NCBI GenBank assembly: GCA_965223735.1
Contig: OZ245010.1
Location: forward strand, 146,273 to 210,272
Direction: 5' to 3'
Length of the DNA: 64,000 nt
Source of the DNA: Candidatus Oxydemutatoraceae bacterium
GTDB lineage: Bacteria > Pseudomonadota > Gammaproteobacteria > Poriferisulfidales > Oxydemutatoraceae
The notes below the pieces were generated by a model, which searched no databases, was not told the origin of the DNA, and worked only from the letters and a program-made list of their open reading frames with translations. Position numbers and translations under genes: made by a program. Positions 6,411 to 41,106 of this stretch are shown here, piece after piece. Position 1 is the first letter of the stretch; the number at the start of each line of letters is the position of its first letter.

Positions 6411-6482
6411 GCCGGGGTAGCACAATGGTAGTGCAGCGCATTTGTAATGCGAAGGTTGGGGGTTCAAGTCCTCTCTCCGGCA
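6411..6482 (+). tRNA. tRNA-Thr (anticodon UGU)
   Basis: Hand-folded cloverleaf. Acceptor stem is GCCGGGG/CTCCGGC, D arm GCAC-AATGGTA-GTGC, and anticodon stem-loop GCGCA-TTTGTAA-TGCGA. T arm is GGGGG-TTCAAGT-CCTCT and the discriminator is A. The 3' flank reads CCG, so CCA is not fully encoded. Confidence 0.85.
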
Positions 6483-6552
6483 CCGTTCTCCAGCGGTCGT
6501 TGCGGCTGTGACGGCGTGCGGATCTTTTGAAGCGAAGAGAACGGATCCGGTG

Positions 6553-7083
6553 ATGACCCGCGATATAGCCACAACGCAATGCGACACGACGACGCGGTTT
6601 GTCATGGCCTCTCCGCTCGGCGACCTCGAGATCACATTGTGCGACGACGCGCTGGCGGACATTCGTTATCTTCACTCGCGGCTCCGGGGGCGGAAGGGTC
6701 CGGCGGTGCAGCGCAGTCGATCGGCGCGGCGCACGGCGCGCGATGTTGAATACCAGCTCCGCCGTTATTTCGACGACCCGTATTGGCGCTTTGACCTGAA
6801 ACTCATGCCTTGCGGCACGCCGTACCAGCAGCGCGTCTGGAAATATCTGGCGCGCATTCCGGCGGGGCGGCCGATGACCTACGGCGAGGTCGCCGCGCGC
6901 CTCGGTTCTGGGCCGCGCGCGGTCGGCGGCGCCTGCCGCAGCAATCCGGTTCCGATCGTGATTCCCTGCCATCGCGTGATCGCCGCAAGTGCGGTCGGCG
7001 GCTACTGTGGCAATATGCGGGGCAGGATGCTGCACGCCAAACGCTGGCTTTTGCGGCACGAGCATTCACACAAAGAGGAATAA
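6553..7083 (+). CDS. ogt: Methylated-DNA-protein-cysteine methyltransferase
   Basis: Active-site motif IPCHRV is preceded by YGEVAARLG...RAVGGACRSNP. The start is uncertain (GTG 6508 or ATG 6553). Confidence 0.85.
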   Translation: MTRDIATTQCDTTTRFVMASPLGDLEITLCDDALADIRYLHSRLRGRKGPAVQRSRSARRTARDVEYQLRRYFDDPYWRFDLKLMPCGTPYQQRVWKYLARIPAGRPMTYGEVAARLGSGPRAVGGACRSNPVPIVIPCHRVIAASAVGGYCGNMRGRMLHAKRWLLRHEHSHKEE

Positions 7084-7086
7084 ACA

Positions 7087-7290
7087 ATGAGCGAAGAGAC
7101 ACGGCAGGACATTCGCACCTTGCTGAAGCGTTTCGGGATCAAGGCCGACGAGGGCATCACCGCACACCTCGAGAAAACCGGGGCGGGGCCCGATCTCAGG
7201 TTGCGCCTGACGCTTGAAGAGGTCGGTGATCACGGCGTGGATGCAGCGGCGTTGCCGACGCTGACGCTTGAAGGCATGGTCAGGCGCTGA
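7087..7290 (+). CDS. Small hypothetical protein (67 aa)
   Basis: AGAGGA RBS lies upstream of ATG 7087, 3 nt after the ogt stop. The sequence is plausible and hydrophilic. I recognise no motif. Confidence 0.45.
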   Translation: MSEETRQDIRTLLKRFGIKADEGITAHLEKTGAGPDLRLRLTLEEVGDHGVDAAALPTLTLEGMVRR

Positions 7291-7474
7291 CCATCTGCCC
7301 AGCAGGGTGGCGCAAGCCTGTCCGCCGGAGCGGCCGGCCGTTGCGGCGGGCGTCGGCCGCCCAGGGGAATGTGCGGGCATTCGCGTCAGGGCGGATCAAT
7401 GCGGAAAAACCGCCGCGTATCACTGATGGGGGGTGTGGCTTGTCATCAAAGTGATATGAAAGGCAAGGATTTTT

Positions 7475-7531
7475 ACAGAAGATAGCGTAAAATAAGCGAA
7501 GATAACAGAAGATAAAAGAATATAACAGAAG
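7475..7531 (+). promoter_or_regulatory. Purine-rich, AT-rich phased repeat array upstream of the SBP56 gene
   Basis: ACAGAAG occurs at 7475, 7505 and 7525. GAAGATA occurs at 7478, 7498 and 7508. All spacings are multiples of 10 bp. The array lies about 180-240 bp upstream of ATG 7713. Confidence 0.3.
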
Positions 7532-7712
7532 TTTCAGGGTTCCCAAGTTTTGGGTGCCAGCGCGTGGCGGCGCCTGTTCAGCCTATTTTCTAGTTTTGTC
7601 CTGGACAACCCCGTCTTTTGAGTAGGTGATTGTGTGTAAAATCGCCCGCTCCACTTTTCACGAATTTGCGTACAGCAAAACCAACTGAAATTTGCGCTGA
7701 AGGAGCACAGTG

Positions 7713-9095
7713 ATGAAATTATCTGAACTTATTTCCCGTGTCGGCATCATGCTGTCGGCTGTGGCTTTCACGCTCGCGGCGTCAACGGTTCGGGCTGACG
7801 AGACTTGTATGTCGCCGTACATGGCGAAGATCGTCGGTCAGGAAGACTACGTTTATGTCTGGACGCTGGGTGTTGAAGGTCTCGGCGACGCGCAGGATAA
7901 ATTGGTGACGATTGACGTCAATCCGAATTCCGAAACCTACAGCAAGATCGTTTCGAGTTTATCGGTCGGCGGGCGCAATGAGGCCCACCATTCCGGTTTG
8001 ACCGACGATCGCCATTACCTGTGGGCGGGCGGTCTCGACAGCAGCCATATCTTTGTCTTTGACGTTCACTCGAATCCGCGTGAACCGAAACTGCACAGGA
8101 CCATCAAGAACTTTGTGAAAAAGACCGGCGGTCTGGTCGGCCCGCATACATTCTACGCCATGCCCGGCAGGGTCATGATCAGCGCCCTGTCGAATAACAA
8201 GGACCACGGCGGCCGCACCGGTCTCGCCGAGTACACCAACGACGGGCAGTACATTGCAACGCACTGGATGCCGACCGACAGCGCGTTGCACGGCGCGGTC
8301 AAAAGCGGTAAACACGCCGACGGTTACGGCTACGACGTGCGCGCACTGCCGCGGCGAAACCTGATGCTGACCTCGTCTTTCACCGGCTGGTCGAATTACA
8401 TGATGGATCTGGGGCAGATGATTCAGGATCAGGAGGCGATGAAGCGTTTCGGCAACACGATGGTGGTGTGGGATCTGCACACGCGTAAGCCCAGGAAAGT
8501 GCTCGACGTGCCCGGTGCGCCGCTTGAGATCCGTTGCGCTTGGAACGCACGCCACGATTACTGCTTCACGACCACCGCGCTGACCTCGGAGTTGTGGGTG
8601 GTTTACGCGGACGAAAACGGCGAGTGGCAGGCGAAGAAGAGTGCCGACATCGCCCGCAACGAAGGTGATCCTGAGATCCCGTTGCCGGTGGACATCTCGA
8701 TCACCTCCGACGACAGGGGGCTGTGGATCCAGACCTGGTTCGACGGCAAGACTCGTCTCTTTGACATCACCGATCCGTTCAACGCGAAACAAGTGCACGA
8801 GCATAAGATCGGAGAGCAGGTCAATATGATCTCGCAGAGTTGGGACGGCAAGCGGCTTTATTTCTCTTCGTCGCTGCTCGGCAACTGGGACAGGAAAGAA
8901 GGCAAGGACGATCTTCAGTACGTCAAGCTGTACCACTGGGACGAAGAAAAGAAAAAGATGTCGCTCCAGTTCAAGATCGACTTCCTGAAGGAGAAACTCG
9001 GGCTTCCGCATCAGATGCGTTTCGGCGCGTATTCGTTGTACAGCGAAGCGCCTGTGCCTGGGCCGGAAGTGAAAGTGACGCAACTCACTGACTGA
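7713..9095 (+). CDS. Secreted selenium-binding protein family (SBP56 / methanethiol oxidase-like) protein
   Basis: AGGAG RBS (7701-7705) precedes ATG 7713. A Sec-type signal peptide ends in TVRA|DE. Blocks resemble SELENBP1/MtoX: LVTIDVNPNS...EAHHSG, GLDSSHIFVFD, PLEIRCAW, SWDGKRLYFSSSL and LPHQMRFG. Confidence 0.85.
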   Translation: MKLSELISRVGIMLSAVAFTLAASTVRADETCMSPYMAKIVGQEDYVYVWTLGVEGLGDAQDKLVTIDVNPNSETYSKIVSSLSVGGRNEAHHSGLTDDRHYLWAGGLDSSHIFVFDVHSNPREPKLHRTIKNFVKKTGGLVGPHTFYAMPGRVMISALSNNKDHGGRTGLAEYTNDGQYIATHWMPTDSALHGAVKSGKHADGYGYDVRALPRRNLMLTSSFTGWSNYMMDLGQMIQDQEAMKRFGNTMVVWDLHTRKPRKVLDVPGAPLEIRCAWNARHDYCFTTTALTSELWVVYADENGEWQAKKSADIARNEGDPEIPLPVDISITSDDRGLWIQTWFDGKTRLFDITDPFNAKQVHEHKIGEQVNMISQSWDGKRLYFSSSLLGNWDRKEGKDDLQYVKLYHWDEEKKKMSLQFKIDFLKEKLGLPHQMRFGAYSLYSEAPVPGPEVKVTQLTD

Positions 9096-9501: not shown

Positions 9502-10458
9502 ATGGCGCCGATCTGGATGTCGGCCCGGCCCTTGCCCCGAACATTGCTTCTGGCACTGGTCTGGCTGGTCGTTGTCTGCACGATGCATTTCGCCGCCGCG
9601 CAAACCCCCGACCGGGATGTGCGTGCGGGGCAGTCGGAGTTTTCGCGTGCGCAGGTTTTGCGGCCGTCAGACGGATTGCGTGCGGTGCGCAGTCGAGCCG
9701 CCGCGCAAACCCCCGACCAGGATGTGCATGCGGGGCAGCCGGAGTTTTCGCGCGCGCAGGTTTTGCGGCCGTCAGACGGATCGCGTGCGGTGCGCAGTCG
9801 AGCCGCCGCGCAAACCCCCGACCGGGATGTGCGTGCGGGGCAGTCGGAGTTTTCGCGTGCGCAGGTGTTATGGCCGTCAGACGGATCGCGTGCGGTGCGC
9901 AGTCGAGCCGCCGCGCACACCCCCGACCGGGATGTGCGTGCGGGGCAGTCGGAGTTTTCGCGTGCGCAGGTGTTGCGGCCGTCAGACGGATCGCGTGCGG
10001 TGCGCAGTCGAGCCGCCGCGCACACCCCCGACCGGGATGTGCGTGCGGGGCAGTCGGAGTTTTCGCGTGCGCAGGTGTTATGGCCGTCAGACGGATCGCG
10101 TGCGGTGCGCAGTCGAGCCACCGCGCAAACCCCCGACCGGGATGTGCGTGCGGGGCAGTCGGACAGATCGCGTGCGGTGCGCCGTGAGGCCGGCGCCGGG
10201 CGGCGTTCCAATCTCGATGAAAAAGTGGTGGTGCATTCGGACTCGGCGAACGTTCGCAGCCTGATCAAGTTTCTGGCGCCGCGGGGCTGGCGCACCCGCT
10301 TTGACGTCGCCGCGTCCAGGGTGGATCACGCGCTGGTTTTCCATGCTGAAACCACGAGGCGGCGGGCGCTGGATCAACTGTGTTCGAGTTTGGGACTGAA
10401 AGGCATCTTCTATCCCCGCAAACGCATGGTGCTGATCGTCGAGGGGCGTCGGCAATGA
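9502..10458 (+). CDS. Periplasmic/secreted repeat protein, tentatively PilL/TcpQ-like secretin-associated protein
   Basis: A signal-like segment (MSARPLPRTLLLALVWLVVVCTMHFAAA) is followed by 35-aa repeats. The C-terminal ~80 aa (ANVRSLIKFLAPRGWRTRFDV...LGLKGIFYPRKRMVLI) is reminiscent of the TcpQ/PilL C-terminal domain. The stop overlaps the secretin ATG (ATGA). The start is uncertain (9454, 9502 or 9517). Confidence 0.55.
   Translation: MAPIWMSARPLPRTLLLALVWLVVVCTMHFAAAQTPDRDVRAGQSEFSRAQVLRPSDGLRAVRSRAAAQTPDQDVHAGQPEFSRAQVLRPSDGSRAVRSRAAAQTPDRDVRAGQSEFSRAQVLWPSDGSRAVRSRAAAHTPDRDVRAGQSEFSRAQVLRPSDGSRAVRSRAAAHTPDRDVRAGQSEFSRAQVLWPSDGSRAVRSRATAQTPDRDVRAGQSDRSRAVRREAGAGRRSNLDEKVVVHSDSANVRSLIKFLAPRGWRTRFDVAASRVDHALVFHAETTRRRALDQLCSSLGLKGIFYPRKRMVLIVEGRRQ
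9598..10185 (+). repeat. Tandem 105-bp repeat, 5 full copies plus one internally deleted copy
   Basis: GCGCA(A/C)ACCCCCGACC recurs at 9598, 9703, 9808, 9913, 10018 and 10123, an exact 105-bp period. The copies are near-identical and in frame (35 aa: AAQTPDRDVRAGQSEFSRAQVLRPSDGSRAVRSR). Confidence 0.95.
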
Positions 10459-12005
10459 AATCCGCGCGCTTCATCGTTGTCGCAGCCGCGTGCCTGAGCG
10501 TCGCCGTCGGGTGTATGCCGCAGTTTGCGGCGCGAGATGATACCGACGCAGATGTGTCGGCGTTGTCAACGGTTATGTCACAAGAGTCATCGGGGTTATC
10601 CGGGGAGTTGGCCGATCCGCCGGTGTACGTGAGGGCTTTGCACGCGCCGCCGCATCCCGCACTAGCGCAAAAAGTTCACGTCAATTTCTCACCCGGCAAC
10701 GTGGCATTGCACACCGCGATCGTCAAGGCGCTGCCGTTTCTGGTGACGGTCGTCGCCCGCGATCAGATGGTTGACCTGAACGCGCCGGTTTCGGTGCGCG
10801 CGAACGGGGTTGCCGTCGGGACTTATCTCAAACAGCTCGAAGGGGAAAGTGGCTACCGGATTGAATTGCGACCCGACGAGAGCGTGGTTGAAGTGGCGGC
10901 GGTGGTAACGCGCACCTGGAACTTGCCGGCGTTGGCGGGCATGGGGGATTTCAACGCGCGTCTGGGCTTTGGTGATGACGGCGATGATGAAGACGATGGC
11001 GACGTTGAAAGAAGCCACACGATGAGTTCGTCGGTTGCCCACGACGACGATGTGTGGGCGACGGTCGTGGCGCACGCGCATTGCATCCTGGGCATCGGCG
11101 GGTGCGAGTCGGATGAAACAACTGATGCAACTGACGCCGACGCCGAAGTGACGGGCCGTCCGCGCAATGCAGGCACATGGCTGGTCGATAACCGCCGTCT
11201 CGGCACCATCAGCGCGAGCGGCAAGCCGCGGCCGATGGCGCTGCTTGATCAGTGGCTTTCCAAAATGGTCGCCGACAGCCTGCGTTTGGTGCGGCTGGAA
11301 TGCGCGATCCTCGACGTGGCGGTCGATGAGCGGCGTGCGGCGGGCGTTGATTTCGACGCGGTATTCGGCGACGACGAAGATTTCGTCAGGATCACGCGCG
11401 GGTCGGTGGTCTCTGATGACGATGACTCCGGCTGGACGATCGGCACGGTACTCGACGGCGGCCGCTTTGACCTCGACTTTTTTATCCGGCGTCTCGCGCG
11501 CCGCACCGACGTCAAGGTCAAGAGCAGGGCGCGGCTGGTCGTCACCAACGCCGCCACTGCGTATCTGAATACCGGCGAAGTGTTCTCGTATCTGTCCGGT
11601 ATTGAATCGGTGGCGACTGAAGGCGTCGCCACCACTTCATTTGAGCAAACCCGCCTTCAGATCGGCCTCGAACTTGCGGTAACGCCGCGGATCCTCGACG
11701 ACAACGGCCGGATGCTGGTCGAGGTCGTGCCGATCCTGTCTTCGGTGGTGCGCTTTGATGAGCTCGGCGACGGCGCCAACCGTGTCAACACGCCGGTCAT
11801 CTCGTTGCGCCAGATGAGCTCTCAGGCGATTACGCGCAGCGGCCGCCCGGTGGTCATCGGCGGGCTGACCTGGGACCGTCTCGCGTCCGATGAAGAAAGC
11901 CCGGTTGCCGGCACGGTGTTTGAAAAATGGTTTTCGTCGCGCGACAGGAAGACCGAGTCGCGCCAGTTGCTGATCGTGATCACGCCGTGGGAGGTAATGG
12001 TATGA
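10455..12005 (+). CDS. Outer-membrane secretin, lipoprotein type (PilN(R64)/BfpB-like)
   Basis: Lipobox MKSARFIVVAAACLSVAVGC. The C-terminal secretin domain pattern reads LVVTNAATAYLNTGE...IGLELAVTPRILDDNGRMLVEV...TPVISLRQMSSQAITRSGRPVVIGGL...RQLLIVITPWEV. An acidic insert (GDDGDDEDDGD) is present. Confidence 0.85.
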   Translation: MKSARFIVVAAACLSVAVGCMPQFAARDDTDADVSALSTVMSQESSGLSGELADPPVYVRALHAPPHPALAQKVHVNFSPGNVALHTAIVKALPFLVTVVARDQMVDLNAPVSVRANGVAVGTYLKQLEGESGYRIELRPDESVVEVAAVVTRTWNLPALAGMGDFNARLGFGDDGDDEDDGDVERSHTMSSSVAHDDDVWATVVAHAHCILGIGGCESDETTDATDADAEVTGRPRNAGTWLVDNRRLGTISASGKPRPMALLDQWLSKMVADSLRLVRLECAILDVAVDERRAAGVDFDAVFGDDEDFVRITRGSVVSDDDDSGWTIGTVLDGGRFDLDFFIRRLARRTDVKVKSRARLVVTNAATAYLNTGEVFSYLSGIESVATEGVATTSFEQTRLQIGLELAVTPRILDDNGRMLVEVVPILSSVVRFDELGDGANRVNTPVISLRQMSSQAITRSGRPVVIGGLTWDRLASDEESPVAGTVFEKWFSSRDRKTESRQLLIVITPWEVMV

Positions 12006-12868
12006 GTGTGTACAAGCCGGGGATCGAGGTTACTATCGGCGGATGTCGCTGTGTCGTGATATGCGACGCGGTTGCACATACTCTGCCGCCGTCGGATGAC
12101 GTCGTCGTACTCGACCGTCTCGACGGCAGGATGGTGTATTGCGCCTTGTCGTCGCTCAAGTATGCGCGCGAGCGATATCCGGGGCTGCCGGCCTACGGTT
12201 TCTGGCAGGTGCTGCTCAGTTCAGGGTTGGTCGATAAGGCCGGGCGCTTGCAGGCGGTTTATTTTGACGAACGCAACGGTCAATACCTGTATCAGGACGC
12301 CGCGGTCGCCTTTACCGGGGAAATCCGCAACGGCGCATTGCTCGCGAACGGCGGCTATGCGCTCGACCCGTCCGCCGCCCGTGTTATCGCCTGCGAGATC
12401 CGGGACCTGCGCCTGCCGCGCAAAGCCGCGCTGTCTTTTGAGGAACGTGAGCGCGAGCGTGTCGCCCGCAAGTTCAGATTCGCGTCGCGTCTGGCGGCGG
12501 TGGCGGTTTTTCTGAGCGTCGCGCTATTGGCTTACGACGGCAAGCGCCGGTCATACGAAGCCGATCTGCAGGTGGCCCGCGATGCGCTGGAAGTGCGCGC
12601 CGAGGCTCTCGCGGTGCGCAAAGTCGCGTTGCGGGAGACGCGCATCGAGAAATGGCCGGACCAGCACGCCACGCTCGATGACCTGCTGCATTTTGCGATT
12701 GCGCTTGAACGTTTTACGTTGCCCGAGACGCCGCTTGAACACACTGTGTTTGAGGTACGCGTGCCCGACCCGAATATTTATCTGCCGCCGATGGTATCGA
12801 CCATCGTCAGCGGCGTTGAACACCGCCGCGACGGTCTGTTGTCGCTGCGCTGGAGCCGGTCCCGATGA
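12002..12868 (+). CDS. Bitopic inner-membrane assembly protein, hypothetical (position-equivalent to PilO(R64)/GspL/BfpC)
   Basis: ATGA overlap with the secretin stop. A ~165-aa N-terminal domain is followed by one TM (RLAAVAVFLSVALLAY) and an Ala/Arg/Glu-rich coiled-coil-like periplasmic part. I recognise no family motif. Confidence 0.5.
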   Translation: MSVYKPGIEVTIGGCRCVVICDAVAHTLPPSDDVVVLDRLDGRMVYCALSSLKYARERYPGLPAYGFWQVLLSSGLVDKAGRLQAVYFDERNGQYLYQDAAVAFTGEIRNGALLANGGYALDPSAARVIACEIRDLRLPRKAALSFEERERERVARKFRFASRLAAVAVFLSVALLAYDGKRRSYEADLQVARDALEVRAEALAVRKVALRETRIEKWPDQHATLDDLLHFAIALERFTLPETPLEHTVFEVRVPDPNIYLPPMVSTIVSGVEHRRDGLLSLRWSRSR

Positions 12869-13113
12869 GAGTGTTGCCGCTATTGGTTTTTGCCGCCGCC
12901 GCGGGTGTCAGCAGCGGCGTGATGTCTTTCAAGCATACGTCTCAGCTCAGTTATGACAACGCGATGCTCGCGTTGCAGGTGCGTGATCTCGAACGCAAAG
13001 TGGCGGGCTTGCGCAACGGCGGCGTCAGGCCGCGTGTGTTCACCGCCGCCGAACGCCGCGTGCGCCCTCCGGCGGCGCGGGAGTCAAGCCGGGATGGGGG
13101 CCGGCGCCGATGA
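12865..13113 (+). CDS. Small bitopic protein (82 aa), truncated paralog of the next gene
   Basis: ATGA overlaps at both ends. It has an N-terminal TM (LPLLVFAAAAGVSSGV) and a helix LALQVRDLERKVAGL that parallels LALRMNRLEYEVAEL in the 13110 gene. Confidence 0.5.
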   Translation: MRVLPLLVFAAAAGVSSGVMSFKHTSQLSYDNAMLALQVRDLERKVAGLRNGGVRPRVFTAAERRVRPPAARESSRDGGRRR

Positions 13114-13541
13114 AGCCGTTGCTGCTTTTAGTGTCGGCGATGGTGGCCGGGATCGCCGCCGGTGTCGCGTTGTTCGTGTATCTGCCGTCGCCGGAGAGCG
13201 ACACCGATGCGCTCGCGTTGCGAATGAACCGTCTTGAGTACGAAGTGGCCGAATTGCTCGAATGCCCGTTGGCGTCGCCGACTTACGATCATTGGGAGCA
13301 CTTTGAGCGCCATCTCGACACGTACGAAAACCTGAAGTTCAACCGCCTGCCGCCCGACAAAGCCGGCGTGTCCGAGTTCGGGGGTGAGCAGTGGGGCGGG
13401 GTCATGAGCGGGCCGACGCTCGATCTGCTGATTGCCGCGCGCATCGCGCAGACGCTGGTGCCCGTGTATTTCGATCGCGTCGCCGTCGAGGGCGAGGTCG
13501 CGCAGATGACTTTTTATGTGCTGGGTGCACGGGAGGATTGA
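13110..13541 (+). CDS. Bitopic protein (143 aa), PilO/GspM-like topology
   Basis: An N-terminal TM (LLLLVSAMVAGIAAGVALFV) is followed by a coiled-coil segment and a ~80-aa C-terminal domain. The assignment rests on topology and position only. Confidence 0.5.
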   Translation: MKPLLLLVSAMVAGIAAGVALFVYLPSPESDTDALALRMNRLEYEVAELLECPLASPTYDHWEHFERHLDTYENLKFNRLPPDKAGVSEFGGEQWGGVMSGPTLDLLIAARIAQTLVPVYFDRVAVEGEVAQMTFYVLGARED

Positions 13542-13542
13542 G

Positions 13543-14199
13543 ATGCGAAAACTCTTTGCAATCGGCCTGTGGGTCTCGTGCGGCTGTCTGCACGCGGCCG
13601 GGCCGCCCGGGGTCACGACGCAGGTGGATACCCGGGCGGTGAGCGGGGCAGCGGTGTTGCAGCCGGAGGGCATATTGCGGCATACCGTGTCGGCGCAGTT
13701 GCGGACCGGCGAAGTGGCAGTGCTGCTCGAGCATCTGCAAAGCCAGCACGTCTATTTGAAACATCTCGACAACGTGCGCCGCGCCCTCGAGAAGGAGCTG
13801 TCGATCGTCAGGTTGATGAATGAGTGCGGCCGCTTCGGCAGCGCGTGTACCGGGCGGGGCATCACTGTAAAACCGGCGCCCGAGGAACCGCCGTTGCCGG
13901 AACCATTGCCGGAACCATTGCCGGAAGAAGAAGCGCCGTTGCCGGAACCGTTGTCGGCGCCGCCCGCACCGTTGCCGCCGGTGAGTGAACTGCCTGTCGT
14001 CGCCGGGATCTACCGCGACACGGCGTCGCTGATCTATCGGGGGCGTCGCGTCGAGGTGCGCGAAGGGGTGAAGGTCGGGCCGTTCACGGTGGCGGCGGTG
14101 ACGCTGGACCGGATTGATCTCGACTGGGCGGGCGGGTCGGTGACATTGCCGGTGCAATGGCATTCACGGGCGGCTGTCGATCAGAGCCGCGAGTTTTGA
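13543..14199 (+). CDS. Periplasmic protein with Pro-rich spacer and PilP/GspC-HR-like C-terminal domain
   Basis: GGGAGGA RBS precedes ATG 13543. The signal peptide is MRKLFAIGLWVSCGCLHAAG. The spacer reads PEEPPLPEPLPEPLPEEEAPLPEPL. The C-terminus VVAGIYRDTASLIYRGRRVEVREGVKVGPFTVAAVTLDRIDLDW resembles the secretin-docking beta domain of PilP/GspC. Confidence 0.5.
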   Translation: MRKLFAIGLWVSCGCLHAAGPPGVTTQVDTRAVSGAAVLQPEGILRHTVSAQLRTGEVAVLLEHLQSQHVYLKHLDNVRRALEKELSIVRLMNECGRFGSACTGRGITVKPAPEEPPLPEPLPEPLPEEEAPLPEPLSAPPAPLPPVSELPVVAGIYRDTASLIYRGRRVEVREGVKVGPFTVAAVTLDRIDLDWAGGSVTLPVQWHSRAAVDQSREF

Positions 14200-14213
14200 G
14201 GAGCCGTTCTGTC

Positions 14214-15908
14214 GTGCAGGCGAAATTTCAGGATCTGATCGTCAGGTTGTCGCAGATGCGCGTGATGCCCGCGGCGGTCGCCGCCGCGACCTGTCCGCAG
14301 TCGCCGCAGCAGATCATTGCGAAACTGCTCGACATGGGCGTTCCGTCCGATGCCCTGACACAGGCGCTCGCCGACGTGTTCAGCTATCCGGTCTATGACA
14401 AGGGGCGCCACGGCGAGTTCGAGTGCGCCTGCAAACGCGGGCGCTGGGGATACACCGGCGGTATTTTGTTTGTCGCGTGTCCTTTCGACAGCAGCCTGCA
14501 ACCCGCGGTGCTGTTGCCAGCCGACGCTTACCGGAATTTTACCGGATTCGGCCTGCTGCCGGTCAGTGGGGAGCGCGAAGACGCCGACGCCGATGGTTAC
14601 GACCGCGCACAGGCGGAGAAGATTATTCGCCGATGGCTCGAGCGCGCGATAGCGCAGGGCGCGACTGATCTGCATATCGCGCCGTTGACTGCAAAGTACA
14701 TCCGCGTCAGGACGCGCGTTGACGGACAGCTTCAGACGCTCGACGAAATTCCGGTCAGCGGCGAGGAGACAAGTTACCGGTTCGTATCCAATATGCTGCT
14801 GAAAATGATGAACTGCGCGACCGGCAGTTTTATCAGGCCCGTTGACGGGCGCTTTGAGTATCAGGCGCGCGGGCGATGCGTCGAAGTGCGGGTTGCGATG
14901 CGTCCGGTCAGTATTCAGGGGACGCCTTCGCAGGCTTTTTATCTCAGGCTTTTAGGTGCACGCGGCGACGCCGGGCTGAAATCTTTTTCGGAACTGGGAT
15001 TTTCGACGCGCGCGCAGGCCGTGTTCACTGATATTCGGCGCCTGAGCCAGGGGCTGGTGCTGATCACCGGGCCGACGGGATCGGGAAAATCGACAACCCT
15101 GTATGCCAATCTTGCAAGGATCGTCAACGACGACCCCTGGCGTTCGGTGCAGACGCTCGAGGATCCGGTCGAGTTCGACATCCGCGGCATCGACCAGACG
15201 CAGATCAACGAAGACATCGGCATGGGTTTTCACGATGGCCTGAAGGCGCTGATGCGCAGCGACGTTGACGTGATCCTGGTCGGTGAGATCCGCGACCCGG
15301 AAACCGCGAGGTTGGCGATGCGGGCTAGCCTGACCGGGCACCTGGTGTTCGCGACGGTGCACGCCAGGGACGCGCTGTCTGTCGTCGAGCGGATGCTCGA
15401 CCTCGGCGTCAATGCCAAAGCGTTGGCGCTGGTGCTGTCGGCGGTGTTTGCGCAAAGGCTGGTGCGTAAGGTATGCCGTGCGTGTTCGAGCGAAGTCGTG
15501 TTTTCGGAATGCGGCGAAAGCGGCCGTTACGCCGATCTGTTTTCACCTGAGGATAAGTTGCGGACGGCGTGCGCGCAGGGGTGCGCGGTGTGCGACCGCG
15601 GGTATCGCGATCGGCGTGTCGTCGTCGAATGCATCCGCGTCAGCCGGTGCCTGGCGCAGGCGATCGCGGTCGGCGAAAGCGTGGCGGTGCTTGAGAAGAT
15701 TATCGCGCGCGAAGGTGAGGAGACGCTGTGGCATAACGCCGCGTCTCTGGTCAGGCGCGGTGAGACCACGCTCGCCGAATGTGAAAAGCACCTGTCGCTT
15801 CGATGGAATCGAAATCAATCTGAGACGGGTGCGGATGATCTTTTGAACGAGACCACGCAGTTGGCCCCGAAACCGGCCGTTCAACCGGCCATCAATAACC
15901 ATGTCTAA
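14214..15908 (+). CDS. GspE/PilB-family assembly ATPase
   Basis: Walker A GPTGSGKST, Walker B DVILVGEIRD and His box TGHLVFATVHA are present. A tetracysteine CRAC...CAVC motif and an N-terminal T2SSE_N-like segment also occur. GAGGAG RBS lies upstream of GTG 14214. The ORF call from 14157 overlaps the previous gene. Confidence 0.9.
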   Translation: MQAKFQDLIVRLSQMRVMPAAVAAATCPQSPQQIIAKLLDMGVPSDALTQALADVFSYPVYDKGRHGEFECACKRGRWGYTGGILFVACPFDSSLQPAVLLPADAYRNFTGFGLLPVSGEREDADADGYDRAQAEKIIRRWLERAIAQGATDLHIAPLTAKYIRVRTRVDGQLQTLDEIPVSGEETSYRFVSNMLLKMMNCATGSFIRPVDGRFEYQARGRCVEVRVAMRPVSIQGTPSQAFYLRLLGARGDAGLKSFSELGFSTRAQAVFTDIRRLSQGLVLITGPTGSGKSTTLYANLARIVNDDPWRSVQTLEDPVEFDIRGIDQTQINEDIGMGFHDGLKALMRSDVDVILVGEIRDPETARLAMRASLTGHLVFATVHARDALSVVERMLDLGVNAKALALVLSAVFAQRLVRKVCRACSSEVVFSECGESGRYADLFSPEDKLRTACAQGCAVCDRGYRDRRVVVECIRVSRCLAQAIAVGESVAVLEKIIAREGEETLWHNAASLVRRGETTLAECEKHLSLRWNRNQSETGADDLLNETTQLAPKPAVQPAINNHV

Positions 15909-15922
15909 AAGGAGCAGGAAAA

Positions 15923-16405
15923 ATGCGACACTCAATTACGTCCGTGAGGCGCATACGGCGTCAGCGCGGGTTTTCAGTGCTAGAAATCTTAATCGCGACC
16001 GTGTTGATCAGTTTACTGGTCACAAGTGGTCTTTATTACGCCAACGTCGGCGACAAGGCCGACACGGTCGATATTGCAACGTCCAAAGCCGTACTCGTCG
16101 TGCGCTTCCCTGAAGCGTTGCTGTCGGTGTATGCGAAAAAGCAGACGTTGCTGGGCGCGTCGGAGGGCGACCTGACCAAGACCGGTTCGGTGCGGACGGG
16201 CATTCCGGCGACGTGGGAAGTCGCTGGCGGCGACGATAAGCCGACGGCCACCGCGCTGAGCGTCAAACTGACGTTTGAAAAAAGCGAGGTGGTGGAGGTG
16301 CTCAAGACGTATCTGGACGACAGCAAGGATACGACGCTGGTCAGCGAGGTTGCCGTTGACTCCGACAACGGCAAGGTCTTGACGGTCACCTACAGGCTTG
16401 AATAA
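15923..16405 (+). CDS. Type IVb-like major pilin candidate
   Basis: The long basic leader MRHSITSVRRIRRQRG|FSVLEILIATVLISLLV has Gly at -1 and Glu at +5. The protein is 160 aa, and an AAGGAG RBS is present. Confidence 0.8.
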   Translation: MRHSITSVRRIRRQRGFSVLEILIATVLISLLVTSGLYYANVGDKADTVDIATSKAVLVVRFPEALLSVYAKKQTLLGASEGDLTKTGSVRTGIPATWEVAGGDDKPTATALSVKLTFEKSEVVEVLKTYLDDSKDTTLVSEVAVDSDNGKVLTVTYRLE

Positions 16406-17571
16406 TGGCTGCGTGGACGATCCGGTACTGGGGCGACGACGGTCTGTGCGGGAAAGTGGTCGCGGCTGATTCCAAAGCCTCGGCGCTGGCGCTTGCCGAC
16501 GTGCCGTCGTCGAGGGTGGTGAAGATCACGCGCCGCTGGCTGCTTTCGGCGGACGGCGTCGTCGCCTCGGTCTTGTCGGGCCCTTCGGCAAGGACCCAGA
16601 TGTTGTTTCTCGCGCGTGCGTTGGCGCTTTTTGCCGGCGGCGGCGCGGGTCTGGTCAACCGCCTGATCGTGTCGCTGCCCGAGTTGAAGCGCCTTGCAGG
16701 AAAACGGTTTCAGGCCTTGCGCGATGACCTTGAACTCAGCGCGAAACTTCGGTACCTGGGTTTCGGTCCCGAGATTGTTTCGATCATTGAGACCGGCGAG
16801 AAGACCGGGCGGCTGACACAGGCGATTGAAATTGCCCTGGCCTACCTCAAGCAGAATGCCGAGATTGCACAAAAGAACTCAAAGCAATTTTTGTTCGGGA
16901 CATTGCTTATCATCGCAAGTCTGTCTTTGTTCTTTTTATTGCCGTTGTTGCTTGCCGATCCGATAGACACCCTGCGTAATTTACGCGGCATCGAGGTTAA
17001 CTTGACGGCGGCGACTTACGTGTTGCTGTTTGTCAGGGCGGCGGTCAGGGATTACTGGTGGCTCCTGTGCGCAAGCCTCGGCGCGGCGCTTTTTCTGGTG
17101 TGGAAATTCCGCTATGCGCTTTCGCGCGTTCCGCCTTTCAGCGTGTTCGGTGCTCTCGAAAAGACCAGGCGCTCGATCCGTTTTTTGATCGTGTGGCGCG
17201 CGTTCCGGGTTGCCGGAATTCCTCTGGAGGAACAGACGGCGACGCTGGCCGCCGCGCTTGGCGCACGTGCTTCGGCGTACGTGCTCGAGCGTTTGAGGCG
17301 CGGCGAGTCGTTGACCGACACGTTGGACCGGCATTTCTTCAGCCCGACGTTGGTGCTGGCGGTTGCGGGTTTGTCGCAGGTCGGCGTCGAGCCGTTTTCG
17401 AGGATCGTCGATGTGCTTTTGGTATCCCTGCGCGAAGAACAGCAGGTGGGGGTGTCGCGTGTCGCCACCGCGATGTATGTGCTGGGGGCGGCGTTGGCGA
17501 TGGGCACGATCGCCTTGGTCGCCCTGGGCCTGATCTTCCCGATCATGAGCGCTTCGGCGGGGGTGTCGTGA
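16405..17571 (+). CDS. GspF/PilC-family inner-membrane platform protein
   Basis: 388 aa. Two T2SSF-like repeats (…IIETGEKTGRL…, …RLRRGESLTDTL…) are separated by TM segments. The start overlaps the pilin stop (TAATG). Confidence 0.85.
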   Translation: MAAWTIRYWGDDGLCGKVVAADSKASALALADVPSSRVVKITRRWLLSADGVVASVLSGPSARTQMLFLARALALFAGGGAGLVNRLIVSLPELKRLAGKRFQALRDDLELSAKLRYLGFGPEIVSIIETGEKTGRLTQAIEIALAYLKQNAEIAQKNSKQFLFGTLLIIASLSLFFLLPLLLADPIDTLRNLRGIEVNLTAATYVLLFVRAAVRDYWWLLCASLGAALFLVWKFRYALSRVPPFSVFGALEKTRRSIRFLIVWRAFRVAGIPLEEQTATLAAALGARASAYVLERLRRGESLTDTLDRHFFSPTLVLAVAGLSQVGVEPFSRIVDVLLVSLREEQQVGVSRVATAMYVLGAALAMGTIALVALGLIFPIMSASAGVS

Positions 17572-18017
17572 TGACACGGGCGGGGTTCACCGTGATTGAA
17601 ATGCTCGCCGTGCTGGTGCTGGCGAGTGTGCTCTATGCGCTGTTGTTCATCAATTATGACGCGCGTTGGCAACCGGTTGCGTTTGCTTCGAGCACGGTGC
17701 AGGCAAGGCTGTGGTCCGACGCGGCCGAGATTGAACGCCGCCGGGGTGCACTGCGGTCGGGCACCGCTGACGCCGGTGTCGCACTTCGGCGCAGCGATGT
17801 AGCGCCCGCACGGACGCTGTTCGGCGGCGCCTACCGCATCACCGCGACGACCCACACTGCGGTCGTGTCCTTTGACGTGCCGTTTGAAGCGCACGGCGGC
17901 GGCCTCTTCACTGCGGATCACGAGGCGGGCGGCACGGTGCGTGTCATGCCGACCGTGCTTGCGCCGACGGCGCCGATGCAGGAGAAAGTGTTGCTGTATC
18001 GGGAGGCGATTCGGTGA
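17571..18017 (+). CDS. Minor (pseudo)pilin with short leader
   Basis: Class III signal MTRAG|FTVIEMLAVLVLASVLYALLF. The start overlaps the platform stop (TGATG). Confidence 0.75.
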   Translation: MTRAGFTVIEMLAVLVLASVLYALLFINYDARWQPVAFASSTVQARLWSDAAEIERRRGALRSGTADAGVALRRSDVAPARTLFGGAYRITATTHTAVVSFDVPFEAHGGGLFTADHEAGGTVRVMPTVLAPTAPMQEKVLLYREAIR

Positions 18018-18955
18018 AACGGTTTTTGGCGCAGGGCCGCGCGGCGGTGCGGGGGTTCACCTTGATTGAGGTGTTAGCTGTCGTGTTGCTGCTGAGTCTG
18101 CTCGCGACCGGCTACTACGGGCCGCAGTTGCTGTCTGAGACCCGGCGCATCAAGCGGATGCAGGCGGATGTCATCGCGCAGGAGATCTCGTCGCTCGGCG
18201 GCGCCGCGCAGGCGCATACATTGGCGAACGCCGGCGTCTGGCCGCGTCAGGATCATGATTGCCGGCAGGCGTACCAGGCGCTGACCGATCGGTTGCCGAG
18301 CGAGGCGTTCAGCCGCGACACCGCTTTTTACAGAGGACGCGCGCAGGAGGGTGCGCCGCAGTTTGCGCCCTCCGGTGAGCAGGCGTATATCGGGCGCTAT
18401 TACTTCGATTGCAGCGAGAATACGCAGGGCGAGCGCACTTTGTTCCGGGTGCGGCTGATCCTCGGCGGGGACGCTGCGGCGTGGGCCGAGTACATTGCAA
18501 ATCAACTGCCGAATTCGATTGTGACGGGCGGCGCCGAGGTACACGGTCTCGAGGTCGGCTGGCCACCGCCGTTAGCGTTGCCCGCGTTCGATGCGTTTGT
18601 CGCGAAGAATGACCCGGTATTTGAGGCGGACCTCGACGTGGATGGCCATTCAATCCTGGACGTCGGTGAGGTCATCCTCAGCAGCGGGCAGACGCTCGCG
18701 AGTTCATTGCAGTATGCGGGCATCGCCGCGCCCGGCAATGTTGTGGATAAACCCGGCTGTCCTCCGGGGCTGGCGCCGCAGGTGGTGACCGTGCCGGTCG
18801 AGGTCAGTCACACGGACACGCAGCCGATCACTTATTTCCGCACCTACGCTTCGGATATCGGCTCGGCATGGCGTATCAAGAGCGTGGTGTACGGCGCGCA
18901 CGGACAGTCCCACGACGGGCATGTGCGCGTCAGCGTGTTTACCTTGTGTTCATAA
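18014..18955 (+). CDS. Large minor pilin (313 aa), PilV-like candidate tip or adhesin subunit
   Basis: Class III signal MKRFLAQGRAAVRG|FTLIEVLAVVLLLSLL. GTGA overlap with the previous stop. Confidence 0.75.
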   Translation: MKRFLAQGRAAVRGFTLIEVLAVVLLLSLLATGYYGPQLLSETRRIKRMQADVIAQEISSLGGAAQAHTLANAGVWPRQDHDCRQAYQALTDRLPSEAFSRDTAFYRGRAQEGAPQFAPSGEQAYIGRYYFDCSENTQGERTLFRVRLILGGDAAAWAEYIANQLPNSIVTGGAEVHGLEVGWPPPLALPAFDAFVAKNDPVFEADLDVDGHSILDVGEVILSSGQTLASSLQYAGIAAPGNVVDKPGCPPGLAPQVVTVPVEVSHTDTQPITYFRTYASDIGSAWRIKSVVYGAHGQSHDGHVRVSVFTLCS

Positions 18956-18967
18956 AGGAGGTGTGTG

Positions 18968-19651
18968 ATGCGCATTAATTTGTATCAATTGGCTGCCGTC
19001 GCCGGGTTGCTGGCGTGTGGCTGGGCTGGCGGCGGCGAAGTTCTGGCGCCGCCGCTCGGGCGCTGCATAGCGGCACTGGCGGATGAGGGACAGTTCGGTA
19101 TCGAGACCTGCCGGGCGCAGCAAAAGCGCGAGGTGATCAGGCCCGGCGTGAATCGATGCGCGGCTTCGTCGCACGTTGTGCAGGGGCGGATCCGTTGCGG
19201 CAAGAGCGACGCGGCGACCACCGACGCAAACACCGGCACCAGTTTCAAGCTCTACCATCCGACCTTGAGTGCGCCGGTCTCGATCGGTGGCGTCAATAGT
19301 TTTTACGCTGGCAGGCACGCGGGAAAGAATAACCGTTTCCAAGTCCGGCTGCGCGGCGATAACAAACTTGCGGTCGCGGAAAAATCCACCGCTTCGAGCG
19401 AGGGCAATAACTGTATATTCCAGCCGGATGCCAATCAGTGCACCATCAGCACTAATTTTACCGGCAGGCGGCAGAAACAGACTCGGCGCTTTACCGCCTA
19501 CAAGTTGCAACTCGACGGCTTGCTGGTCGAAGAGGCCGTACAGACCAGACGGTGCGTGGTCTGTTCACCCTTCGGGTGTGCCGTTTCCTGCCTGAGGTAC
19601 GGCTTTTCTCCGCCTTCGCCCCCGACGGCAAAATTGTATCCGTGGAATTGA
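18968..19651 (+). CDS. Cys-rich predicted lipoprotein, hypothetical
   Basis: AAGGAGG RBS precedes ATG 18968. Lipobox MRINLYQLAAVAGLLAC is present. There are 13 Cys by my count of the 227-aa product. I recognise no family. Confidence 0.5.
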   Translation: MRINLYQLAAVAGLLACGWAGGGEVLAPPLGRCIAALADEGQFGIETCRAQQKREVIRPGVNRCAASSHVVQGRIRCGKSDAATTDANTGTSFKLYHPTLSAPVSIGGVNSFYAGRHAGKNNRFQVRLRGDNKLAVAEKSTASSEGNNCIFQPDANQCTISTNFTGRRQKQTRRFTAYKLQLDGLLVEEAVQTRRCVVCSPFGCAVSCLRYGFSPPSPPTAKLYPWN

Positions 19652-19657
19652 ACCGGC

Positions 19658-19686
19658 TTCCGTTTTGTTCCGTGGAGTGCTATTTT
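19658..19686 (+). promoter_or_regulatory. Possible rnpB promoter (extended -10)
   Basis: TGCTATTTT (TGn plus TATTTT, 19678-19686) lies about 6-8 nt upstream of the inferred RNase P RNA 5' end. The -35 element is weak. Confidence 0.3.
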
Positions 19687-19690
19687 GCAC

Positions 19691-20062
19691 GCGCGAGTCG
19701 GCTGAACGGTCGCCGCGCGGTCGTGCGACGGCCGGGCGGAGGAAAGTCCGGGCTCCATAAGGCAGGGTGCCAGGTAACGCCTGGAGAGCGCGAGCTCATG
19801 GAAAGTGCCACAGAAAATACACCGCCCGGCTTGTCGGGTAAGGGTGAAATGGTGCGGTAAGAGCGCACCGCGCCGGTGGCAACATCGGCGGCAGGGTAAA
19901 CCCCACCCGGTGCAAGGCTGAATAGGGAAGCCGTTCCGGTCTCCGGAGCCGTGTCGTCTGCACGGCGGGCTTCCGGGTAAGCCGCACGAGGCGCGTGGCG
20001 ACATGTGTCCCAGATGGATGACCGTTCTCGACAGAACCCGGCTTATAGGCCGACTCGTTCTT
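19691..20062 (+). ncRNA. rnpB: RNase P RNA, bacterial type A
   Basis: Universally conserved blocks are present: GGAGGAAAGTCCGGGCTCCATAAGGCAGGGTGCCAGGTAACGCCTGG, GGTAAGGGTGAAATGGTGCGGTAAGAGCGCACC and ACAGAACCCGGCTTAT. P1 pairing links 19693-19702 with 20049-20058. Ends are approximate to within a few nt. Confidence 0.92.
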
Positions 20063-37715: not shown

Positions 37716-38035
37716 TCACGCGGCACGGGGGTAAGTGACTGGATTCCGGTTCAGGGATCAAAGCGCCGGGAGATGTCCCTACCTGGTTCCGGACGTTTTG
37801 ACTTTGAGCGCGGTAAACGTTGTTTGCGGATAACCGGTAACGGCTGAACGGCGTGCCGACCCGCCGGTCGGCCGTCGTGTGTCCCCGTTTGGAGGCAGCT
37901 ACCCGGCTCAGACCGAAGGTGAGTGTTCCCGGCTGAAAACTTTTTTGCCGCGATGGCGCCGGTGGTTGTGCCGGGCGTCCGGCGGCGGCTGTTCCGAACG
38001 CCGCCGATGAGCGCCGTGTGCGGTTACCGGCGCTG

Positions 38036-39514: not shown

Positions 39515-39580
39515 TTTCGTTAGCTCTATGCCGCTATACAGGAGTCAGTTTGACGCGGCAGATGGATCAGGAAAAACGCA

Positions 39581-40744: not shown

Positions 40745-41106
40745 TCCATTATGAATATAACGTGAATAAACCGGTTGGGGCCTTCCGGATGGTGTCTTTG
40801 TGCCGGGCATATTACTGTTTAATGCTGGGGAGGCGCAACTTTTTTGTACCCTCCTCGCACGCCGCACGCTTATTGAGGTTTAAGGGTAACTGTTTGATTT
40901 TAAGTAACTTTGAGCCGGATGACGACCCAGGGACGCCCTGAAGGGAAGGTGCCGGGGGCAGTTGCGAAGGGAGCGGTCGGGGTCGGAACTTTGCCAAAAT
41001 GCTCCGGTATTGTTAGAATTACGGCCATATCACTTGATCGCAATCAAATTTTCCAGCTGTACAGACTGGTTACCCGGTTGTATGGAAACGATCTTAGGTA
41101 AAAGTC

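Follow-up and report, generated by a model that had tools for sequence, protein, structure and literature searches.

A chromosomal type IV filament operon from a conserved, unnamed subfamily in Candidatus Oxydemutatoraceae

Which machine is encoded by a compact, pilus-like operon that sits among chromosomal housekeeping genes and several of whose products belong to no protein family? The operon in question occupies positions 9502-19651 of a 64-kb stretch of DNA (64,000 nucleotides of contig OZ245010.1, referred to below as the window) from a small-genome Candidatus Oxydemutatoraceae gammaproteobacterium. The analyses described here indicated that it encodes a type IV filament (TFF) machine, a kind of apparatus that is known as such, and that it belongs to a subfamily which is conserved and unnamed and whose plasmid-borne members had been noticed earlier.

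An open reading frame (ORF) scan of this region gave twelve co-directional ORFs on the forward strand, named g1-g12, and an independent gene call on the identical public contig returned the same twelve, one more than the eleven counted in the initial annotation. All seven start/stop overlaps reported there were real when the junctions were checked (ATGA at 10455, 12002, 12865 and 13110, TAATG at 16405, TGATG at 17571 and GTGA at 18014), and the remaining four intergenic gaps measured 1, 14, 14 and 12 nt. Shine-Dalgarno sequences of the AGGAG type stand before g6, g7, g8 and g12, the site of g12, whose gene starts 12 nt after g11, being strong, and none of the twelve genes has an internal stop. 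The genes, as delimited by the ORF scan and translation, are as follows, lengths being given in amino acids (aa).

g1, 9502-10458, + strand: secreted or periplasmic protein with a signal peptide, a repeat linker and a conserved C-terminal domain of ~85 aa; no Pfam family
g2, 10455-12005, + strand: outer-membrane secretin with a lipoprotein-type signal peptide (Pfam Secretin PF00263, 3.9e-18, 66 bits)
g3, 12002-12868, + strand: bitopic inner-membrane protein (AlphaFold2 model, mean predicted local distance difference test, pLDDT, 70)
g4, 12865-13113, + strand: 82-aa transmembrane and coiled-coil protein, by sequence a truncated paralogue of the g5 N-terminus
g5, 13110-13541, + strand: 143-aa bitopic protein with an N-terminal transmembrane segment, a coiled coil and a C-terminal alpha/beta domain
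g6, 13543-14199, + strand: periplasmic protein; a signal peptide or lipobox is followed by a long helix, then a Pro-rich linker and, at the C-terminus, a beta domain
g7, 14214-15908, + strand: hexameric assembly ATPase of the GspE/PilB type (T2SSE PF00437, 1e-82, 278 bits)
g8, 15923-16405, + strand: major prepilin (N_methyl 3.4e-5, above the Pfam cut-off; TIGR02532 above cut-off)
g9, 16405-17571, + strand: polytopic inner-membrane platform of the GspF/PilC superfamily (Pfam T2SSF PF00482, 1.2e-7, 32.2 bits, cut-off 25.2)
g10, 17571-18017, + strand: small minor pilin (TIGR02532 21.0 bits, cut-off 16.3; motif MTRAG/FTVIE, the slash marking the cleavage site)
g11, 18014-18955, + strand: large minor pilin, 313 aa (N_methyl 4.1e-6, above the Pfam cut-off)
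g12, 18968-19651, + strand: secreted or lipoprotein-like protein, 227 aa, with a signal peptide; no Pfam or PDB match

The Pfam and NCBIfam searches, together with the translations, bore out the core components that had been read from the letters alone, namely a lipoprotein secretin, a GspE/PilB ATPase with its motifs, a GspF/PilC platform and three prepilins, and they left the accessory ORFs without a family. The generic constituents of a TFF system, that is, a T2SSE ATPase, a T2SSF platform, subunits with class III signals and a secretin, are thus all present. In the secretin g2, a lipobox-like VAVGC was read from the translation, for which the orthologues have a canonical LVSGC; its PDB matches (PilQ and GspD) were restricted to the C-terminal domain, and no Secretin_N repeat was matched in Pfam. 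Its NCBIfam scores, given against the respective cut-offs in bits, were 90.8/250.2 for MshL, 65.9/287.65 for PilN-T4b (TIGR02520), 48.7/351 for GspD and 40.9/284 for PilQ. The ATPase g7 has an N-terminal extension and a tetracysteine motif (CRAC...CAVC), and Walker A (GPTGSGKST), Walker B and a His box were likewise read in the translation, as were the stretches DVILVGEIRD and HLVFATVHA. Its NCBIfam scores were 296/630 for GspE, 271/676 for PilB and 203/300 for ComGA; against the PDB it scored ~210 bits with PilF and GspE (up to 212), 180-193 with PilB and 108 with BfpD, an ATPase of type IVb pili (T4bP). In BLASTP, it matched Escherichia coli HofB (36%, 202 bits) and GspE (35%, 199 bits), and R64 PilQ over the core only (32%, 134 bits). 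Judged by these scores, g7 is closer to the GspE, HofB and PilB types than to the T4bP ATPases. The platform g9 is very divergent: a single T2SSF domain was detected in it, two being visible in its homologue on plasmid pQBR103, and the NCBIfam GspF model gave 38.1 bits against a cut-off of 424.

The three prepilins share the cleavage motif G/F-x3-E. The leader of g8 has 16 residues and ends in RRQRG/FSVLE, leaving a mature protein of 144 aa with no cysteine, and its gene lies between the ATPase and platform genes, as first noted for the window and as found here in every relative. In g10, the Pfam N_methyl score remained below the cut-off (17.4 versus 21.2 bits), and a weak score was obtained with the GspH model (19.7 bits, cut-off 80). 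The large subunit g11 combines a pilin N-terminus with a C-terminal domain of ~200 aa and carries two Cys pairs that are invariant in the family alignment (C83/C133 and C249/C312); its match to solved pilins is confined to the alpha-1 helix, and it is 60-73% identical among the Oxydemutatoraceae genomes. It is probably the tip or initiator subunit and would be a candidate adhesin. Meanwhile, among the scanned ORFs of the window other than those of the division and cell wall (dcw) cluster, no integrase, relaxase, type IV secretion system (T4SS), prepilin peptidase, lytic transglycosylase or PilT gene was found, in agreement with the absences listed earlier.

Does this set belong to one of the named systems? 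TFF systems are usually sorted into type IVa pili (T4aP), T4bP, Tad, mannose-sensitive haemagglutinin (MSH) pili, type II secretion systems (T2SS) and competence (Com) systems. In NCBIfam, no component of g1-g12 reached the cut-off of a T2SS, T4aP, MSH, R64-type T4bP or Com model, which upheld the proposal of a distinct TFF subclass. The locus resembles MSH in that MshL is its best secretin model, in the GspE/PilB/MshE kind of its ATPase and in being, as the MSH locus is, a chromosomal operon of Gammaproteobacteria, probably likewise for an adhesive pilus; however, the MshL score lies far under the cut-off, no counterpart of MshI, MshJ, MshK, MshM or MshN was found in NCBIfam or Pfam, and the gene order and minor pilin set are unlike those of msh. 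The order of the msh genes is mshIJKLMNEGF-BACD. From T4aP, it differs in the low PilB and PilQ scores given above, in the lack of any PilM/N/O/P match in Pfam and in the lack of PilT from the window. Taken on model scores, pairwise comparisons and architecture, the subfamily appears separate from T4bP, MSH and T2SS.

Is the operon conserved and under selection? In a scan of one genome per species, four loci were recovered, all in Ca. Oxydemutatoraceae or "uncultured Chromatiales" metagenome-assembled genomes, and only 13 relatives of g3 with at least 54% identity were found among 5.8 billion proteins. The comparison of related genomes that had been suggested for the locus revealed that the block consisting of the upstream SBP56-family gene and g1-g12 is syntenic in three other genomes (L002, L004 and L005), with protein identities of 37-84%; after g12, the block continues with rnpB-mraZ-mraW in L002 and with mraZ-mraW in L005. 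A scan of metagenome contigs with the secretin alignment detected no related locus. The ratios of nonsynonymous to synonymous substitution rates (dN/dS), calculated by the Nei-Gojobori method against L002 and L004, were below 1 for all twelve genes (0.18-0.69), although these values are rough because dS was 0.4-1.3 (one value 2.5) and thus near saturation. The core machine genes gave 0.18-0.26, close to the 0.245 of the housekeeping gene mraW, and g4 and g12 gave 0.38-0.56 and 0.22-0.54, respectively. Synteny in three other genomes together with a dN/dS below 1 in every gene argues that the operon is no product of chance, and the retention of 10 kb intact in a small genome (a 1.85-Mb contig) argues that it is in use.

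How far does the subfamily extend beyond this lineage? A HMMER profile search with g3 returned 143 representatives at 50% clustering among 1.84 billion proteins, nearly all of them ~290 aa long. A tblastn search of plasmids with the ATPase led to the 320-kb plasmid of Methylophaga thalassica (L006) and to pQBR103 (L007), which were also matched by g3 in tblastn (E 8e-14 and 4e-10, respectively). Both plasmids carry the same ten-gene order, namely g1-like gene, secretin, g3-like, g5-like and g6-like genes, ATPase, pilin, platform, small minor pilin and large minor pilin. Colinear homology was detected on both for g2, g3, g7, g8, g9, g10 (weak) and g11, and on the Methylophaga plasmid only for g1, g5 and g6 (weak). 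The plasmid clusters are 21-36% identical to the window proteins, and the homology of their ATPases extends from end to end and takes in the N-terminal domain (36% and 30% identity). Genes like g3 were found on 76 plasmid records, of which 72 are from Pseudomonas, 2 from Methylophaga, 1 from Stutzerimonas and 1 from Flagellatimonas. The accessory proteins of both plasmids, and in Methylophaga also the secretin and the platform, are annotated as "hypothetical" in RefSeq, and Pfam gave no family for the accessory proteins of the plasmid clusters.

In the literature, the plasmid cluster is called a putative type IV pilus; the pQBR and IncP-2 megaplasmids share it in conserved form, and its role is "yet to be determined experimentally" (PMC4989453, PMC7070040, PMC13391042). 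The suggestion that the window holds an undescribed system therefore stood in part: the same ten-gene cluster was already known from these megaplasmids, and the subfamily is unnamed and its function putative. The clusters of pQBR103 and pQBR57, of the pBT2436-like IncP-2 megaplasmids and of Methylophaga share with the window the ten-gene order, the homologous g3 family and accessory proteins without a family. They differ in their setting, the pQBR and Methylophaga clusters being plasmid-borne and that of the window chromosomal among housekeeping genes; pQBR103 is typed as mating-pair formation class MPF_I and has a gene resembling a type IV coupling protein 5 kb upstream of the cluster. Furthermore, the pQBR103 and Methylophaga clusters are without g4 and g12, unlike that of the window, and the Methylophaga cluster additionally encodes another large pilin, a LysM protein and a PilT-like ATPase. 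In pQBR plasmids, the pilus block is conserved jointly with those for radical SAM proteins and chemotaxis (PMC13391042); several radical SAM genes lie directly after the cluster in pQBR103 (L007 15246-21638), and none flank the cluster of the window. For the class assignment of pQBR103, no match was present in the searched supplements of Denise et al. 2019 (PMC6668835).

The ten-gene order was also found on metagenomic contigs and chromosomes, with slight variation in L015, in which a 178-aa gene is inserted between the secretin gene and g3, and in L009, which has two extra genes of ~347 aa. In L015, a 1.6-Mb contig, the cluster lies between lipopolysaccharide genes and xseA/guaBA. The chromosomal clusters of L010 and L012 are preceded by birA-coaX, like that of the window, and in L012 glnS is present too. 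Compared with the window, the proteins of L010 and L012 are 53-55% (ATPase), 48-54% (secretin), 40-43% (BirA) and 32-37% (CoaX) identical, and GlnS of L012 is 61% identical; a common position next to birA-coaX at such divergence argues for old vertical inheritance and not for recent import. A PilT-like ATPase gene stands at the operon end in two relatives, the Methylophaga plasmid L006 and L016. In L018 (1829-4585), genes for DotD, T4SS_TraI, a TraJ/DotB-like ATPase and IcmT lie directly upstream of the cluster, the intervening genes being a ParM-like one and an IS605-family OrfB. This is the clearest physical link of the pilus subfamily to MPF_I conjugation systems, and, since the clusters of both pQBR103 and L018 adjoin MPF_I genes, a link to conjugative thin pili is plausible. 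By these comparisons, a core of ten genes can now be separated from add-ons (g4, g12, PilT and LysM).

What do the accessory genes contribute? The initial annotation had left five ORFs (g3-g6 and g12) without any assignable motif. Indeed, Pfam and NCBIfam gave no family for g3, g4, g5 or g6 and only sub-threshold, chance-level matches for g1, and profile searches of Pfam, NCBIfam and the PDB with g1, g3, g5, g6, g11 and g12 gave nothing significant outside the alpha-1 helix of g11 and weak or borderline matches of g3. Probable roles can nevertheless be put forward for four of the five, of which that of g6 is well supported, g4 is clearly a paralogue of g5, and those of g3 and g5 are weak.

The best supported of these is g6. 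The AlphaFold2 model, built on an 11-sequence alignment, predicted the C-terminal domain (residues 152-203) at a pLDDT of ~90, and Foldseek matched it best to the homology region (HR) of GspC (3oss_C; probability 1.00, TM-target 0.77, root-mean-square deviation 1.4 Å), followed by PulC HR 6hcg_e, GspB 4wfw, PilP 2y4y/2ivw/2lc4 and LspC; the E-values are only ~0.06 because the domain is small. The GspC-HR/PilP-type module docks on the N0 domain of the secretin in T2SS and T4aP. With this modelled fold, g6 is probably a coupler to the N-terminal domain of the secretin.

For g3, the other protein whose structure was predicted, the picture is less sharp. The model comprises a cytoplasmic alpha/beta domain (1-130), a transmembrane/coiled-coil helix (146-211) and a small, poorly predicted C-terminal periplasmic domain. 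Its best Foldseek matches were weak, namely an actin-like fold (3hrg, E 0.019) and the cytoplasmic domain of GspL, which had been solved in complex with GspE (4pht_X, E 0.067); in profile searches, a weak PilN match at the transmembrane/coiled-coil region (E 0.019) and one borderline match to an outer-membrane-protein coiled coil (E 0.0019) were seen. Among the 125 members of the g3 family, no Pfam family recurred, there being 11 isolated single-member matches, the best of them T2SSM (E 3.8e-4). The model suggests a GspL or PilM-PilN-like assembly protein that would tie the ATPase to the periplasmic parts. In L002, a 242-bp unit that corresponds to the final 81 codons of g3 occurs as four repeats of 94% identity (10626-11591); three additional ORFs of 81 aa result, all in register and linked one to the next by ATGA overlaps, and a 105-bp duplication covers the start and signal peptide of g6 (12249-12456). 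These duplications could be real copy-number variation or an artefact of long-read assembly.

The protein g5 is kept at the same position in all relatives, and it has no sequence match in Pfam, NCBIfam or the PDB; its topology and position make it a probable PilO/GspM-like alignment protein. Sequence comparison clearly points to g4 as a truncated, lineage-specific paralogue of g5, with 41% identity over 49 aa (pairwise E 3e-7). Orthologues of g4 occur in L002 and L004, and L005 has no intact ORF; with the window, three of the four Oxydemutatoraceae loci thus contain g4, and tblastn found no match in L006, L007, L009, L010 or L012. Comparisons by hhalign with single sequences were all negative (R64 PilO2 for g3, R64 PilP for g6, and E. 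coli GspL, GspM, the latter tested against g5, and GspC); single-sequence templates have low power, and remote homology to PilO2, PilP, GspL, GspM or GspC may have been missed.

The linker of g1 contains a tandem repeat (DNA 9592-10163, 105 bp or 35 aa, 5.4 copies, 95% identity). An unrelated repeat occupies the same place in the L002 orthologue (237 bp, 3.1 copies), and L004 and L005 have none; the linker is hypervariable, since repeats differ or are absent among relatives. The C-terminal domain, in turn, is conserved in all relatives, and its profile aligned with R64 PilL residues 114-181 in hhalign (probability 51%, E 1.6e-4). In BLASTP, a 53-residue stretch matched R64 PilL (E 0.013), and the Methylophaga homologue gave a weak STN match. 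From its position and this weak homology, g1 is probably a secretin-associated partner of the PilL/TcpQ type.

Finally, g12 has nine invariant cysteines and, in two genomes, a lipobox LLAC; three of the four genomes have W-N at its C-terminus (otherwise W-Q or W-S). Its orthologues in L002, L004 and L005 are 37-42% identical, while the neighbouring proteins are at 60-78%, so that g12 is fast-evolving. A word-index protein search returned only g12 itself; at the same operon-terminal position in L015, however, hhalign detected a remote homologue of 228 aa (88%, E 3.4e-6), which also ends in W-N. It is a candidate pilus-associated adhesin or cargo.

How would these parts work together? The reading that we favour, with moderate confidence, is that of a functional, vertically inherited TFF machine of an unnamed subfamily, which combines a T4b-like one-operon layout with a GspE/PilB-like motor. 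In the assembly we infer, including all protein-protein contacts, the roles of g1, g3, g4, g5 and g12 and the adhesive output, the major prepilin g8 and the minor prepilins g10 and g11 would be cleaved by a prepilin peptidase whose gene is located in another part of the genome. The g7 hexamer would act on the g9 platform, held by the cytoplasmic domain of the bitopic g3; an inner-membrane alignment ring would consist of g3, g5 and the g5-derived g4; and the HR/PilP-type beta domain of g6 would bridge this ring to the N-terminal domain of the secretin g2, which the PilL/TcpQ-like g1 would assist. The fibre would be primed by g10 and g11, leaving the C-terminal domain of g11 exposed at the tip, and g12 would be a secreted Cys-rich partner, either a tip-associated adhesin or a cargo. 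As the operon has no retraction ATPase, the pilus would be static or would retract without a dedicated motor. Its most likely output is adhesion to surfaces, to a host or between cells. The gene content and order, their conservation, the purifying selection and the fold of the g6 C-terminal domain are, for their part, results of the analyses above.

Several observations weigh against this reading. Neither a prepilin peptidase nor a retraction ATPase is encoded by the ORFs scanned in the window, the roles proposed for g3 and g5 draw on weak matches or purely on topology, and the hhalign comparisons with the single E. coli GspL, GspM and GspC and R64 PilO and PilP sequences were negative. The Cys-free, pseudopilin-sized g8, the GspE model as the best for the ATPase and GspC as the best fold for g6 would also fit a T2SS-like machine. 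Moreover, the pilus role of the subfamily is still putative (PMC13391042).

Could the operon then be a T2SS-like secretion machine, in which a short g8 pseudopilus pushes a folded periplasmic substrate, most obviously g12, through the secretin? This main rival, which we consider rather unlikely, can point to GspE as the best curated ATPase model at 296 bits, but the GspE, GspD and GspF equivalogs all stayed far under their cut-offs, and the lipoprotein secretin, without Secretin_N repeats, scored best with the MshL and PilN pilus models. The best structural matches of g6 are indeed the HR domains of GspC and PulC; g6 has no PDZ domain, however, and an HR-type fold does not separate T2SS from type IV pili because PilP has the same fold. 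The topology of g3 is GspL-like, with the weak match to the GspL cytoplasmic domain, and g1 has a PilL/TcpQ-like domain. The major subunit, 144 aa long and free of disulfides, is GspG-like, and the window holds no retraction ATPase, but there are only two minor pilins, the GspI/GspJ/GspK set has no counterpart beyond the shared N-terminal helix, and the gene order is unrelated to that of T2SS. That g12 is fast-evolving, has a signal peptide and is kept at the operon end in a distant relative would suit a secreted substrate, whereas relatives with PilT-like ATPases or beside conjugation genes display features of pili. T4b pili typically combine a large minor pilin with a single small one (TcpB, CofB, PilV). 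A true pilus is preferred over a pseudopilus because the operon has this T4b-like pair, because its lipoprotein secretin has a PilL/TcpQ-like partner, and because relatives show linkage to conjugation; the PilT-like ATPases in L006 and L016 point to true, dynamic pili in the subfamily.

A DNA-uptake pilus for natural transformation is a still less probable explanation. T4a-like and Com pili take up DNA, and uptake normally needs retraction. The compact system with few minor pilins and the equidistance of g7 from HofB/PilB-type and GspE-type ATPases would be compatible with such a function, but the ComGA, ComGB and HofQ models lie far under cut-off, no comEA, comEC or dprA-like gene was found among the scanned ORFs of the window, no minor pilin is recognisable as DNA-binding, and there is no PilT here.

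The likeness to the R64/PAPI-1 thin pilus that had been pointed out for the locus held for the organisation and failed for homology beyond PilQ, PilN and a marginal PilL. The R64 pil region was fetched, and all its proteins were compared with g1-g12 by BLASTP: three matches were detectable, PilQ (32% over 311 aa), PilN (21%, E 3e-5) and PilL (E 0.013), and no counterpart of PilM, PilO, PilP, PilR, PilS or PilV was found by BLASTP or hhalign. Strong full-length matches to the R64 cluster, which would have undone the claim of novelty, were thus not seen. The shared layout is that of one operon with a PilL-like gene before the lipoprotein secretin, a bitopic and a PilP-like protein before the ATPase and platform, a pilin and a large minor pilin last; since only PilQ, PilN and a stretch of PilL are detectable, the likeness is one of layout and not of family membership. 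The window differs in the pilin gene lying between those of the ATPase and the platform, in the absence of a linked peptidase, transglycosylase, shufflon or T4SS from the scanned ORFs, and in g7, whose tetracysteine motif is of the GspE/PilB type and whose scores are higher with GspE and HofB. Membership of the R64 type was ruled out by the direct protein comparison and the sub-cut-off models. That the operon is a genuine R64/PAPI-1-type conjugative thin pilus, either still conjugative or the remnant of a plasmid or an integrative and conjugative element, is accordingly very improbable: the weak homology of g1 to PilL, the MPF_I type of pQBR103 and, in L018, the genes for DotD, TraI, a TraJ-like ATPase and IcmT immediately before the cluster speak for it, but the secretin reached only 66 of the 288 bits required by PilN-T4b, the ATPase is nearer to GspE/HofB than to PilQ/BfpD, no relaxase, integrase or other transfer gene of the kinds listed is among the scanned ORFs of the 64 kb, the GC content is native, and the cluster keeps its place in the chromosome even between genomes with no more than 32-61% identity in their housekeeping proteins.

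A non-functional relic, kept by chance or decaying, is likewise very improbable. The tandem duplications at and near the locus (the repeats of g1, the partial g5 copy g4 and those in L002), the lack of a peptidase gene in the window and the small genome speak for it. Against it, the genes are without internal stops, dN/dS is below 1 throughout with the core at housekeeping-like rates, synteny has been preserved in four genomes and also in lineages farther away, and 10 kb are retained in a reduced genome, which argues for selection.

Beyond the favoured reading of a vertically inherited filament machine, a more far-reaching version of it can be offered only tentatively. The operon may be the chromosomal form of a separate, unnamed TFF class with its own alignment families (g1, g3, g5 and g6) and a GspE/PilB-like motor within a T4b-like operon, a class that would have passed between conjugative MPF_I megaplasmids and chromosomes. 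In small-genome relatives among the Ca. Oxydemutatoraceae it would have become fixed and gained g12, a tip adhesin or secreted cargo in host association.

What surrounds the operon? The flanks proved to be those given in the initial annotation, SBP56 on one side (Pfam) and rnpB-mraZ on the other (Rfam and Pfam).

SBP56-family gene, 7710-9095, + strand: upstream flank, not part of the machine (Pfam SBP56, 1.2e-52)
RNase P RNA gene (rnpB), 19694-20061, + strand: downstream flank (Rfam RF00010, 320.7 bits)

The SBP56 gene is 75-84% identical and syntenic in L002, L004 and L005 and is not adjacent to the more distant clusters. Downstream, rnpB starts 43 nt past the stop codon of g12 and is followed by mraZ and mraW (Pfam). 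No terminator-like site was predicted in 19651-19694, so that transcription of the pilus operon might read through into the RNase P RNA; when promoters and terminators were predicted for the locus as a whole, sites were no more numerous than in shuffled sequence. The GC content over g1-g12 is 0.61-0.635, equal to that of most of the window, which confirmed the core-like composition and chromosomal setting claimed for the locus. Recent import, or a genomic island, was ruled out by the native GC, the housekeeping flanks and the conserved position. The genes upstream are mutL-miaA-gloB-glnS-birA-coaX-tRNA-Thr-ogt, and those downstream include the dcw cluster, an M23 peptidase gene, secA, argJ, a NUDIX-ThiE fusion, hflX, hflK/C, lpxB and others. 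Between coaX and the cluster (6411-9095) lie tRNA-Thr (TGT), an ogt-like methyltransferase gene (6508-7083) and SBP56, the tRNA-Thr at 6411 being kept apart from the cluster by ogt and SBP56. In L002, two additional genes stand between the tRNA and ogt, and in L010 and L012 the cluster stands closer behind birA-coaX; because its contents differ among the window, L002 and L010/L012, the interval between coaX and the cluster is a variable spot. Elsewhere in the window, a patch of low GC (0.48-0.53 versus ~0.61) extends over 38000-41000, just upstream of the ORF at 41107-42024, at the distal end of the block of cell-division genes. Its ORFs, both on the minus strand, encode a glycosyltransferase of family 2 (39581-40867) and a protein of 492 aa without a Pfam family (38036-39514), and the patch looks like a foreign insertion.

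What does the operon mean for the bacteria that carry it? The locus and its relatives match none of the curated models that were run, keep a fixed architecture and contain four to five components for which there is no family model. What this analysis adds is the form of the machine that is chromosomal and inherited vertically, the connection of that form with the megaplasmid clusters, the fold assigned to g6, the derivation of g4 and the add-on g12. The g3-family matches on plasmids include some clinical P. aeruginosa megaplasmids, whose role in multidrug resistance has been described (PMC7070040). Since the chromosomal version is under purifying selection without nearby transfer genes, the machine has a use apart from conjugation. 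The Ca. Oxydemutatoraceae bacteria are related to sponge symbionts, and the operon is a stable chromosomal gene set there. For research on symbiosis, it offers a candidate organelle for attachment or host interaction in a sponge-associated lineage.

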